A stretch of 64,000 bases of DNA, taken from Promethearchaeota archaeon. Its GTDB lineage: Archaea > Asgardarchaeota > Heimdallarchaeia > Hodarchaeales > Hodarchaeaceae. Every line of letters starts with the position of its first letter. Within the stretch, counting starts at the first letter, position 1. This document shows, in pieces, positions 1,752-32,565 of the stretch. The stretch covers positions 121,059 through 185,058 of the forward strand of contig JBHLMN010000013.1 in NCBI GenBank assembly GCA_048938105.1, in the 5' to 3' direction. The notes below the pieces were generated by a model. The model made no database searches. It had not been told where the DNA came from and saw only the letters and a program-made list of their open reading frames with translations. The translations under genes were made by a program, and so were the position numbers.

Positions 1752-2888
1752 TTAATCTTTGATTAGGAATTCATCTAATCGGTTTCTTGCTTTTTCTCGT
1801 TTTTTCCTATGATTTTCAAGGAATACATTGATTTTATCTATTAAAATGGCTTTCAATTCACCAGTGAGTAAATCTCCATTTCGATAATCTTCTTCTAATG
1901 TCTTTAGCTTTTTATCGTCCTCTTCAAAGAGGATCTTTAACCATTGAAAACTAACGTCAATGTCTGGATCGCCCCCTTTTTTCCGATGTTCCTCGATAGA
2001 TACTTGACCCCCAGAAAACGCATATTTAACAATCTTCTTTTCAACTGTTTTAGGGTCATCCGTCACATACACAGTTTGAGTGGGGTCAGAAGCAGACATC
2101 TTACCTTCAGGCCCGCCAAGAGCAGGAAGGAACGAACATTGAATACTGGCAGGTTTGTAAAATCCTAACCGTGGAAGAACATCTCGAGCCAATCTAAAAT
2201 GTGGATCTTGGTCTATTGCGTGTGGGATGAGGCAGGGCACATTTTTTCCCTGTCTGACGCTTTCCAAGACTGCAGGAACTGCTTGTATGCTTGTATAAAA
2301 TACGCTTCCAATATTAATGGAGTTATCGAATCCGAACGAAGCTTTAACTGTTGAATAAGTAATTTTCTTGGCAATGGGAAGAGCGATGTTATAGAACGTT
2401 TGAGCATTGTCTGTATCAATAATGATTTCAGTATTTTTAGGATCAAACCCTAAAGCAATCACATCACAAGCATTTTCGATTGCATAAGAGTAAGTATCTT
2501 CCTTACTCAATTTTTCTTCAAATAAAAACTTCTCATCATCAGTCAATTGGAAGATAAACTTAACATTGAATTTATCCTGTAACCATTTAGTAAAAATCCA
2601 AGGGACTAGATGCCCAATGTGAATACCTTCTGAGGGACCCCTACCAGTGTAAAGATGGAATTTATTTCCCTTTTCCCATTCATCTAGGATGAAATTCATG
2701 TCTCGGTGGGTAAAAAAGGTTCCACGACGTAACATGTAGTGTAACTCTCCAGTATGCTTTTTAATTCTTTCAAGGAGAGATTCATCTATCGGTTCTGTTC
2801 CAAATCGTTCCATTAGTTTGGTGTAGTCTACTTTACCATGAACTTCCCATGGTGTGACAACGAAATCATTTTCATTCTCTTTAGTCAT
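1752..2888 (-). CDS. trpS: Tryptophan--tRNA ligase, archaeal/eukaryotic type
   Basis: VTPWEV, YTGRGPS, HIGH, IDQDPHFR, KMSAS and AFSGG motifs. Confidence 0.97.
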   Translation of the reverse strand: MTKENENDFVVTPWEVHGKVDYTKLMERFGTEPIDESLLERIKKHTGELHYMLRRGTFFTHRDMNFILDEWEKGNKFHLYTGRGPSEGIHIGHLVPWIFTKWLQDKFNVKFIFQLTDDEKFLFEEKLSKEDTYSYAIENACDVIALGFDPKNTEIIIDTDNAQTFYNIALPIAKKITYSTVKASFGFDNSINIGSVFYTSIQAVPAVLESVRQGKNVPCLIPHAIDQDPHFRLARDVLPRLGFYKPASIQCSFLPALGGPEGKMSASDPTQTVYVTDDPKTVEKKIVKYAFSGGQVSIEEHRKKGGDPDIDVSFQWLKILFEEDDKKLKTLEEDYRNGDLLTGELKAILIDKINVFLENHRKKREKARNRLDEFLIKD

Positions 2889-3120
2889 CCTTTAGAAACT
2901 CCTGAGTTCTTGCATGGTTGATTTAGGGTAAAAAGGGCCCATTTTTTTTAATTTAGTATTGCTCATAAACAATTTATGAATAAAGGGATCTACAATAAAT
3001 GGTGTATTAATCTTCTTTGCACTTAAGCTGCAAAATCCTATCTTAGAAAAATGTCTTCGAAAGAAATAGTAAAACCTAAAGAGGATGCTCAACTTTATCC
3101 TTTTTGAATCAAGAAAAAGT

Positions 3121-3140
3121 GCTGGTGGTTGTCCACTAGC
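3121..3140 (-). terminator. Hairpin followed by a T-tract upstream of trpS
   Basis: Minus strand GCTAGTGG-ACAA-CCACCAGC (8-position stem with one mismatch on this strand, a G-T pair on the + strand), then ACTTTTTC. Confidence 0.3.
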
Positions 3141-3288
3141 GACAAATTCCATTGGTAGAGCATTCTCATCTCCAAGTGGTTGGTTTTATTTCGTATATTA
3201 AAATCTTGCCAATGGTGATAAATATGTTGATTGAAATGAAGGTGTGAGCTAGCAAATTGATGAGATTTGGGTATTTTGAGGGTATTTA

Positions 3289-29742: not shown

Positions 29743-31023
29743 CTAAGATAAATCCCATAGATTTGTCGTAGATAGGGAAACTCCGTGTATAATTTTCTTT
29801 TGGTCTTCACTTATTCCTTCAAAAATCTCTTCCATACGCTCTTTTCCTTCACTGAACCTGCTAATCTGATGATGACTACCTTTCGTAATAGATGAAATAA
29901 TTTTGGTTACTATAAAGCCATAAGATTCCCGCCCAGCTAAATGTGGGTTTGTGTTTACAACAGTAGTATGGATTCCTTCTCTTTTAATCATCTTTGAAAC
30001 TGAAACTACATCTTTGATAGCTAAGTCTTCAAATCTTCTCAATACAATGCCCACATCGTTAAACTTCCGAGTTTCTCCAGTCTCTAAGCTTCTGTAAAGT
30101 GGAACATTAGCATTTCCATCTGTAATAATAACCATAACAGGAATTGCTGCTTTATCCCTACGTCTCGTTTCTTTCAAAACTTCCCTTGCTTTTAGCATAC
30201 CAGCTGCCAAAGGTGTGAAACCACTAATCTTCAACTGAAGTAACTTATTTGCTACTACTCCTAAATTGGTAATAGGATGTTGGACAACAACAGCTCTTGT
30301 TTCCTTGAGAGCTACTATCCCTACTTTATCTCTATATCTGTAAGCGTCTCGGTGAAGTTTTAATAAGGCTTCCTTTGCTTCTTCGATACTAAACAACATT
30401 GATCCACTAAGATCAATGACAAAGACCAAAGTCATGGGAGCCTTATACAATCGTAATTTTTCACAAGCATCCTCTAAGAATATTGTGAGGGTTGTTTCCT
30501 TAGATGTTTCTCTGTTTCCCTGTTTTCTCGCTGCAGATCTAATTGTTGCTGGTAAGTGGATGTCTTTTGGTTTTCCTCTTGGTCTTTTCCATCCCCATGG
30601 TCGTCCTCGATGGAGCGTTGTTATCGTTTCTCCTCTTTTACCAGCATAATTACTAATTCCTCTGATAGGAGGCTTTTTTTCGAGAAATAGTTTAAAAGGC
30701 GCTAATACACTTTCTTTAATCTTGGAAAGAAAGGTCTTACCCTCATATAAATCTGGTGGTTTTAGTGCTAAACTAACTGTAGGGATTCCTTTCATTTTTC
30801 CTTTTATAGGGTCATCAGAGATCTCTCCCCTTAAGTTATCCGATCCTTTCACAATACCATCTATTACGGGAGCTTCTTTCGGACTTGATTTCATTTTTTT
30901 TCCAAAAGCGAATCCTGGACCTAATCTACTAAAAAAAGCAAAGATTTTTGCACGAGACTTACTGATCTTTTTTTCTGCAATAGCCTTTTCTTTATCAGAT
31001 GCGTCATCCTGAGCCCAGATCAA
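29743..31023 (-). CDS. VWA-domain ORF, C-terminal half of a ChlD/CobT-like chelatase medium subunit (probably reached by -1 frameshift)
   Basis: [20 protein letters not shown] (MIDAS), [16 protein letters not shown] and ITDGNANV; weak TTG start overlapping the upstream TGA. Confidence 0.85.
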
Positions 31024-32126
31024 GGCCCGTCCTTTTGGTTTTTTACGTTTTTTTTTTGAGTTTCAGGAGGTCGGATTTTCTCTGTATATTTTACCTCTTT
31101 GACTTTTGCTTTAAATACCTTAGAAATTTCTTCTGAAGTAGCTGGTTCCAAAAAGCCCCCCTTCCTTGTTCTGTGGCTCAGAGTAAGTTCAGAAGCCATT
31201 AAAATGTCAGCTAGGGTAGTAAAGACTCTGTTTTCAAATGCTGCAAGTGTGCATGCAGCTTTATTTATTACGATGTCAGGTCTCATTCCATCAACCCCTA
31301 AATCTAAGCACATCCTGCAGATAGCTTCAAGAAGCTTTTCTGGCATCTCAACTTGTGGTAGAATTGTCCTAGCATCTGTTATCCGCTTTCGTAGTTCCTC
31401 CTGGTTTGGTTTGTATTTATCAAAAAAGCTTTCAGGATTTCCTTCAAACTCGACATTTCTCTTAACTACTTCCATCCTATCTTTAACAGTTAATATTTGG
31501 TCTACACTTACAGATAATGAGAAGCGATCCAAGAGTTGTGGTCGAAGTTGTCCTTCTTCAGGATTCATGGTACCAATGAATATGAAACGAGAGGGATGAC
31601 GAACTGAGATTCCTTCGCGTTCTACCACGTTCCAACCTGTTGCAGAAGCATCTAACAAATCATCAGCAACATGGTCAGGGAGGAGATTGACTTCATCAAC
31701 ATATAAGATATTTTGATTTGCTTCTGCTAGAACTCCAGGTTCTAAAGCCCCTATTCCATGTTTTATTGCTTTTTCAACGTTTAAACTCCCTACTACTCGA
31801 TCCTCTGTAGCTCCGAGTGGAAGATCAACAACCACCATGTCTCTTTTTTCCATTTGCAGCTGATCTCCCCTTTGGTAATGTTCACTGCATTTTTCACACA
31901 TATTTGTGAGGTCATAAGGATTGCAATTAAAGGGACAACCTTTCACAACATCCAGTTTTGGCAAAATTGCAGTTAATCCTCGCACCACGGTTGTTTTTCC
32001 AGAACCTTTAGGGCCCTGAACTAATACTCCACCAATTTTAGGATTGATCGCGTTGATTAGAATGGCGAGTTTTAGCTTATCTAATGAAACAATAGCCGAA
32101 AATGGAAATGATAACCTTTTTTGCAT
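31020..32126 (-). CDS. Magnesium/cobalt chelatase ChlI/BchI-like AAA+ ATPase
   Basis: [15 protein letters not shown] (Walker A), [21 protein letters not shown] (Walker B) and [18 protein letters not shown]. Confidence 0.93.
31038..31057 (-). promoter_or_regulatory. Candidate -1 frameshift/slippage signal: A10 tract and tandem A_AAA_AAC heptamers
   Basis: mRNA CAA AAA AAA AAC GTA AAA AAC; the -1 frame is open from here into the VWA ORF. Confidence 0.7.
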
Positions 32127-32221: not shown

Positions 32222-32565
32222 TTATTTCTTTAATGTCGCGATTTCTTTTTGAATTTCTTGGATTAATATGTCATAGGGGCATAAAAGGCTTAAATTAATA
32301 TTATCAATATTTTGGAGATTGTTATCTATTAATTGGGGTAGTCCTGTAGGAACATATACAATGCCTTTGCGAATAAGTCGAAAAATTTCCTTCAAAATAG
32401 TTTTTTTTCCTTAAGAGTTCGAATTCCTAGCAAATTCATGATGAATCGAAGATTCTGAGTATCAGTATCCTTAAAAGATAATAAGATCAAAGCACGATCC
32501 GCTAACTGATTTATCTCTGCTTCAGAAATTGCGATATCTGGAAAGGTATGCTTGTTATTACTCAT
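32222..32565 (-). pseudogene. Small winged-HTH-like gene split by a -1 frameshift at an A8 tract
   Basis: 57-aa ORF (32565-32392) continues in the -1 frame after GAAAAAAAA (32401-32408) as TILKEIFRLIRKGIVYVPTG...IATLKK; 114 aa if joined. Confidence 0.6.

Follow-up and report, generated by a model that had tools for sequence, protein, structure and literature searches.

A conserved A-tract with a -1 frame break lies between a ChlI-like ATPase and a VWA reading frame in an Asgard archaeon and points to probable slippage yielding two subunits from one gene

In Escherichia coli dnaX, a -1 ribosomal frameshift at A_AAA_AAG gives rise to the tau and gamma subunits, and in Thermus thermophilus dnaX is subject to transcriptional slippage on an A run. 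Closer to the gene described here is the fs-chlD 'magnesium chelatase' recoding cluster, which was published in 2013 with archaeal genes included (Antonov et al., PMC3711429) and reviewed in 2016 (Atkins et al., PMC5009743) and again in 2021. Its hosts comprise Methanocaldococcus, Methanococcus, Pseudomonas, Burkholderia, Delftia and Herpetosiphon (PMC3711429; PMC5009743). When Mg-chelatase genes of this kind were analyzed in E. coli reporters, frameshifting reached 10% at seven A's, 40% at nine and 63% at 11 (PMC3711429). The occurrence of fs-chlD in genomes without chlH or cobN has also been described (Kuznetsov et al. 2022, PMC9227772), including a 'stage 1' genotype of anaerobes that lack chlH/cobN together with the chlorophyll and B12 pathways, such as Spirochaeta thermophila and Brevefilum fermentans (PMC9227772). 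Here we analyzed a gene of this family in a stretch of 64,000 nucleotides (nt), referred to below as the window, from an Asgard archaeon of the Hodarchaeales (Promethearchaeota archaeon, contig JBHLMN010000013.1, positions 121,059 to 185,058), in which an open reading frame (ORF) for a ChlI-like AAA+ ATPase and an ORF for a VWA domain meet at a run of 10 A's.

The reading that accounts best for the data, to which we assign a probability of about 0.72, is that slippage on this A10 tract gives both a 368-amino-acid (aa) ATPase and a 794-aa ATPase-VWA fusion, and that the resulting complex is more likely a motor acting on a non-porphyrin client than a chelatase subunit. The features on which the analysis rests are the following (window coordinates).

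31020-32126, minus strand: zero-frame ORF encoding the 368-aa ChlI-like AAA+ ATPase (P0001) from an ATG start; the product of standard decoding
29743-31023, minus strand: -1-frame ORF of 426 aa with a conserved linker and a VWA domain (P0002) and a TTG start, equivalent to a ChlD-type protein over its C-terminal two thirds
31048-31057, minus strand: A10 slippery tract, read in the zero frame as CAA AAA AAA AAC; the proposed site of a one-base slip
31063-31065, minus strand: TGA closing the -1 frame upstream of the tract; the 5' limit of the shift window
31020-31022, minus strand: TGA stop of the zero frame, overlapping the TTG as TTGA; the 3' limit of the shift window
31024-31047, minus strand: eight overlap codons ahead of the only candidate start, reading RKKPKGRA in the -1 frame
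30968-30974, minus strand: A7 run at the position called site 2 below; the window copy is unbroken here, and the sister subclade (L006, L007) has an A10-11 tract and a break
31011-31028, minus strand: 6-bp hairpin GGGCCU/GGGCUC, present, neither significant nor conserved

The VWA ORF sits in the -1 frame relative to the ATPase ORF, and the two overlap at the TTGA. The 3' end of the ATPase ORF reads CAA AAA AAA AAC GTA AAA AAC ... CCT TGA, while in the -1 frame a TGA lies five bases ahead of the A10 and the frame is then open into the VWA ORF; a shift joining both ORFs is confined to 40 nt. Re-reading of the ORFs from the sequence bore out the first-pass annotation of this DNA with respect to strand, coordinates, the TTG start, the overlap and the -1 relation, to the closure of the -1 frame just before the run, and to two in-frame A_AAA_AAC heptamers, both of which were found. 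The A10, which had been singled out as the longest homopolymer noticed in the window, proved to be the only A/T run of nine or more there. The genome as a whole (5.85 Mb, 35% GC) contains 60 runs of at least 10, below the number expected from base composition.

Conservation of the tract was analyzed in the orthologues of seven species-level genomes of the genus, the window's own (L001) included. An A10 or A11 linker tract was present in all seven, at one of two sites. Four of the seven genes are broken, in every case in the -1 direction and at the tract, and the orthologues are thus not all single in-frame genes. The -1 break in L001 and in L004 falls at one and the same tract (site 1). At that position L006 and L007 lack a long A run and stay in frame; their break comes about 25 codons further downstream, at an A10-11 tract (site 2). 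The remaining three genes, L002 (A11), L003 (A10) and L005 (A10), are unbroken, and their single frames give about 792-795 aa when measured from where the ATPase match begins. A search for proteins of similar length to the ATPase revealed many independent metagenome proteins that terminate a few residues after KKK, at 357-374 aa for site 1 and at 396-403 aa for site 2. Short Bathyarchaeia proteins in the same list were considered as further frame breaks and set aside, as by eye at least some of them appear to be contig-end partials. P0011 carries 'partial' in its NCBI name, and its tail carries on in frame in P0177.

We also examined the possibility that the break is a sequencing or assembly error, the true DNA being A11 and the gene an ordinary in-frame fusion. 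In favour of this, errors are common at homopolymers, the frame is unbroken in three congeners and in all Bathyarchaeia orthologues, and the exact protein of the window was found in one contig only. However, P0003, a protein of 369 aa with 82% identity to that of the window, is encoded in three separate JGI metagenomes, and all three contigs (L053-L055) carry the allele of the window, A10 followed by CG. The site-2 form P0018 was recovered from 10 contigs, which derive from NCBI and from several Logan runs. Within intact open frames of the window's genome we counted 357 A runs of at least 8, and frame junctions occur at 0.7-1.7% of A-runs, compared with 0.7% of random positions; a systematic homopolymer error was rejected on these figures. 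Given the same allele in independent metagenomes and no excess of breaks at A-runs, an error at the tract is very unlikely. Among 329 A runs of at least 9 in the genome, only the A10 at 31048-31057 lies between two long frames; together with the presence of the tract in 7/7 congeners, this excludes chance for both tract and break. In one of the JGI contigs with the P0003 allele (L054, positions 2015-3225), gene calling splits the VWA part again, into genes of 139 and 228 aa, which suggests a further break or an error within the VWA part of that contig.

Expression of the VWA frame as part of a fusion was assessed by comparison of broken and in-frame genes. Addition of one A to the tract yields a 794-aa protein that aligns from residue 1 to 791 as a single segment with the in-frame proteins P0122 (77%) and P0123 (77%). 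The ratio of non-synonymous to synonymous substitution rates (dN/dS) in the linker and VWA part was 0.13 for L001 versus L053, which share the broken allele, 0.12 between two site-2 broken genes and 0.06-0.09 for in-frame pairs, with synonymous sites near saturation in these comparisons (dS about 1.3 for L001 versus L053). These low ratios indicate that the broken genes are not decaying. Across the eight overlap codons, three broken genes show 9 synonymous and 6 non-synonymous differences when read in the -1 frame (R-x-K-P/T-K-G-R-x), compared with 2 synonymous and 15 non-synonymous differences in the zero frame. Although it lies upstream of the only candidate start, this segment evolves as coding sequence in the -1 frame.

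The same codons bear on an alternative in which the two ORFs are separate genes expressed by translational coupling, with termination at the TGA and reinitiation at the overlapping TTG producing a free linker-VWA protein and no fusion. Start and stop codons overlap in L001 (TTGA), L004 (GTGA), L006 (ATGA) and L053 (ATGA), the TTG is preceded at 8-12 nt by an AAGGA, and gene callers annotate two genes. However, the NTG corresponds to the ancestral Met/Val/Leu of a conserved '(M/V/L)IW' motif in the in-frame genes and the AAGG to Lys-Gly codons, so that the overlap and the AAGG simply follow from the protein that is encoded. The NTGA of the other broken genes is likewise the ancestral Met/Val/Leu-Ile codon pair of this motif and did not evolve for coupling. 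The conservation of the eight codons upstream of the NTG, in the -1 and not the zero frame, also speaks against coupling, as does the conserved A10-11 tract, which coupling leaves unexplained. Finally, genes of the L007/P0018 type have no ATG, GTG or TTG in the VWA frame for 33 codons after the stop, past the conserved linker motifs. We regard expression by coupling as an unlikely account of the locus.

A different alternative places the switch in the DNA. The tract would be a mutational hot spot, subject to phase variation or tolerated insertions and deletions, at which a change between A10 and A11 switches the gene between split and fused states, the window carrying an 'off' or partly inactivated allele. 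In-frame and broken states do alternate between closely related genes: the tract context is identical in L004, which is broken with A10, and in L002, which is in frame with A11; the broken L004 has its nearest relative in the in-frame L003, from which it differs at only 7-8% of non-synonymous sites; and the in-frame P0122 nests among broken forms on the ATPase-domain tree described below. In contrast, the same broken allele has been kept across the 18% protein divergence and the dS of about 1.3 that separate L001 and L053, the identical A10 occurs in three samples, and purifying selection continues to act on the VWA part (dN/dS 0.13), whereas a long-lived 'off' state would decay. A genetic switch of this kind therefore seems improbable.

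Slippage during expression fits the same observations. In the mechanism we propose, standard decoding would stop at the TGA at 31020-31022 and produce the 368-aa ChlI-like AAA+ ATPase, and a one-base slip on the A10 would put part of the output into the -1 frame, giving the 794-aa, ChlD-like ATPase-linker-VWA protein. The slip would be either a -1 step of the ribosome on A_AAA_AAA or A_AAA_AAC, both of which the tract presents in the zero frame and which are fit for such a step, or an extra A introduced by RNA polymerase; the A10 is also long enough for the latter, and the ribosomal and transcriptional routes are not distinguishable here. In the in-frame genes L002 and L003, both alternative frames stop about 7-12 codons past the tract. 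A slip in these congeners would yield a ChlI-like short product, so that some short ATPase would accompany a larger amount of the fusion. The tract would yield both products from either allele, with only their ratio differing, which would explain the alternation of in-frame and broken genes among close relatives. Because the in-frame congeners also keep the tract and the same slip would give both products, the tract probably determines how many protomers of a ChlI/ChlD-like ring carry a VWA domain relative to those that lack one.

The hairpin at 31011-31028 had been put forward in the first-pass annotation as a weak structure shortly after the second heptamer. It is present, and a role as a stimulator found no support: it folds no better than shuffled sequence (z = -1.1, with 30 of 200 shuffles at least as stable) and is not conserved. 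When the regions downstream and upstream of the tract were folded for the window and four relatives, none was significant (z from -1.0 to +0.8 in the relatives), and the consensus fold of six site-1 sequences reached -2.8 kcal/mol with no covariation. The hairpin was rejected as a stimulator on these values and probably does not promote the slip, which, with no significant or conserved structure, is attributed to the tract alone.

To place the gene within its wider family, we extended the search to longer proteins. This revealed in-frame proteins of about 790-810 aa, grouped in more than 120 clusters and at least 70% identical in the ATPase domain; the named ones are mostly from Bathyarchaeia, and the linker is conserved as protein. 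At 30-odd Bathyarchaeia genome loci, the gene was always in frame and the linker A-runs were at most 9 and mostly at most 7. A quick IQ-TREE analysis of the ATPase domain, in which proteins without the anchoring motif (P0135 and P0136 among them) were left out, recovered an Asgard clade of 14 clusters: 13 terminate directly past KKK, seven of them being site-1 forms by tail length and six broken at site 2, and one is in frame. One of the seven site-1 clusters, P0015, looks cut by a contig end. The sister clade of the Asgard clade on this tree is entirely in frame. Taken together, the tree and its in-frame sister clade indicate that the fused in-frame protein is the common and probably the ancestral form, and the long A-tract with a frame break is confined to this Asgard clade.

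The predicted shifted product is as similar to Bathyarchaeia proteins (P0123, P0129 and L018-L049; 75-77% over about 789 aa) as to those of its Asgard congeners (72-77%), and among 60 sampled genomes of the class the orthologue is carried only by this genus. This distribution suggests transfer between Bathyarchaeia and this Asgard genus, in either direction. Seven other congeneric genomes (L008-L013 and L017) contain a more distant paralogue, in frame, whose open frame spans 959-1046 aa and which shares 35-39% identity with the gene in the VWA part; both types were found together only in genome G010, and the window's genome does not have the distant form. One Bathyarchaeia locus (L043, JBEKKK010000003.1) carries two complete fused ATPase-VWA copies in tandem.

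Family assignment was examined by profile and structure comparison. The ATPase ORF matched the ChlI/BchI model TIGR02030 (E = 9e-121) and the N-terminal half of TIGR02442, the fused 'putative cobaltochelatase' (E = 1.5e-134). The VWA ORF matched the C-terminal part of TIGR02442 and of BchD/ChlD (E = 1e-41 for the C-terminal part of ChlD). The best solved relatives were Synechocystis ChlI (6l8d, E = 4e-103) for the ATPase and the VWA domain of BchD (2x31) for the VWA ORF. In the translation, the Walker A (GPKGSGKT) and Walker B (DEVN) motifs of the ATPase are intact, as is the MIDAS motif of the VWA domain (DxSxS...T...D, as DLSGS, GFTPL and TDGNAN). A MoxR-type AAA+ protein with a VWA partner was considered and rejected, as the Pfam model AAA_3 gave 16.4 bits, below its cut-off of 27, whereas ChlI-type models gave E = 1e-121 or better. 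P0001 scored below the NCBIfam curated cut-off for TIGR02030 (403 versus 467 bits), and the in-frame orthologue P0122 was likewise under the cut-offs for TIGR02442 (601 versus 779) and TIGR02031 (344 versus 500). Since these scores lie below the equivalog cut-offs even for a natural in-frame orthologue, the gene belongs to a related subfamily and does not encode a bona fide Mg- or Co-chelatase subunit.

The first-pass annotation had seen no chlH or cobN in the window and had suggested a role other than classical chelation. Profile searches of the whole genome, which is 99% complete, widened this result and strengthened the suggestion: PF02514, the CobN/ChlH/BchH large subunit, gave no match there and did match in control genomes, and HemB (PF00490), HemC (PF01379) and CbiX (PF01903) gave no match in the genome either. 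A second chlI paralogue or a cobN/chlH gene elsewhere was also considered; the genome was searched and no second ChlI-like gene was found. The neighbours in the window, a GNAT acetyltransferase, a zinc-ribbon protein and a glyoxalase, are unrelated, and across 38 loci no neighbouring family was common to more than nine, and none of those included the window. Because no CobN/ChlH, HemB, HemC or CbiX was matched and the neighbours are unrelated and unconserved, a role as a tetrapyrrole chelatase is unlikely and the substrate is probably not a porphyrin. Binding of ChlI to ChlD is a textbook interaction. The two products would form a ChlI/ChlD-like AAA+ ring whose VWA/MIDAS domains engage a putative client, and the more likely activity of this AAA+/VWA motor is remodelling of, or metal insertion into, a non-porphyrin client.

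Several points weigh against one gene with two slippage products. Most orthologues, in the more than 120 clusters from mainly Bathyarchaeia, are plain in-frame genes without a long A run, so that the family can do without a separate short ATPase. The overlapping start and stop codons mean that reinitiation could also express the VWA part, the protein of the window itself comes from a single contig, and no significant or conserved stimulatory RNA structure was found. That slippage occurs in this organism, and with what efficiency and at what level, is something we infer from the sequence. On the other side, what the sequences show is the anatomy of the locus, a tract and a -1 break kept within the clade, a VWA part that is held by purifying selection and a shifted product colinear with fused orthologues. 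The proposal of one recoded gene encoding a 368-aa ATPase and a 794-aa fusion, made at first pass from the window alone, is upheld by this comparison, to which the constraint on the overlap codons and the subclade without a VWA start also contribute. A broader picture, which we put forward tentatively, is that the A-tract serves as an evolvable stoichiometry dial: it would have moved between two linker positions, flipped in and out of frame, and set the proportion of protomers with and without VWA in a mixed AAA+ ring working on a non-tetrapyrrole client, in a gene that perhaps came from Bathyarchaeia and gained its tract later.

A small gene directly upstream on the same strand (32222-32565, minus strand) is also split in the -1 direction, at an A8 run and with a TTGA overlap. 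Three paralogues elsewhere in the genome (C64:31860-32235, C28:25135-25520 and C28:24250-24640) are single in-frame genes of about 120 aa. The window copy reads A8 followed by CT and the C64 copy A8 followed by GCT, a one-base loss right after the run of the same kind as in the chelatase-like gene. The small gene may be a pseudogene or a second slippage site.

Comparison with the known systems places the gene of the window closest to the fs-chlD cluster, of which it has the defining features except a downstream stimulatory structure. As in that cluster, a ChlI-like ORF overlaps a downstream -1 ORF for the ChlD linker and VWA domain, a poly-A slippery site lies in the overlap (A_AAA_AAR with up to 11 A's in the cluster, A10 in the window), fused in-frame homologues are colinear with the shifted product, and the locus is annotated as two genes. 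It differs in its Asgard (Hodarchaeales-type) host, in the position of the tract at either of two linker sites in sister subclades, in the alternation of in-frame and broken alleles among congeners, and in the lack of a detectable stimulatory structure, which is usual though not universal in the cluster. Frameshifting in the fs-chlD cluster has been shown in E. coli reporters; for the gene of the window it is predicted from sequence. Like the 'stage 1' genotype, it is an orphan fs-chlD for which neither the large subunit nor tetrapyrrole markers were matched in the genome; unlike that genotype, it has an archaeal host, and its nearest relatives are plain in-frame Bathyarchaeia genes. For this reason a derived, clade-specific gain of the tract fits better than an ancient 'living fossil' state. 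The in-frame Bathyarchaeia ChlI-ChlD fusions (for example P0123 and P0129, about 790 aa, related to TIGR02442) share its domain order and linker motifs. These fusions, unlike the window gene, are single-frame, with the short linker A-runs given above, and recoding is neither needed nor indicated in them.

The parallel with dnaX is more general. In dnaX, as proposed here, a single AAA+ gene supplies the same ring with two subunits, one long and one short, through A-rich slippage at a domain boundary. The slip in dnaX truncates the protein, whereas in the gene of the window it would extend it, and the Shine-Dalgarno-like element and hairpin that stimulate frameshifting in E. coli dnaX have no counterpart found here. 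The mechanism is already published for the gene family, and what sets this locus apart is that its host is an Asgard archaeon, that the tract has two alternative positions and that in-frame and broken genes alternate. The annotation is corrected to one recoded gene in place of two, and for Asgard archaea the locus provides a cellular gene in which poly-A recoding is well supported; our literature search found no paper on frameshifting in cellular genes of this group. The in-frame A10 and A11 genes, the broken A10 genes and the two tract positions form a natural series for the study of polymerase and ribosome slippage in archaea, and the same series can be used to probe the role of ChlI/ChlD-type motors where the large subunit, HemB, HemC and CbiX are unmatched.

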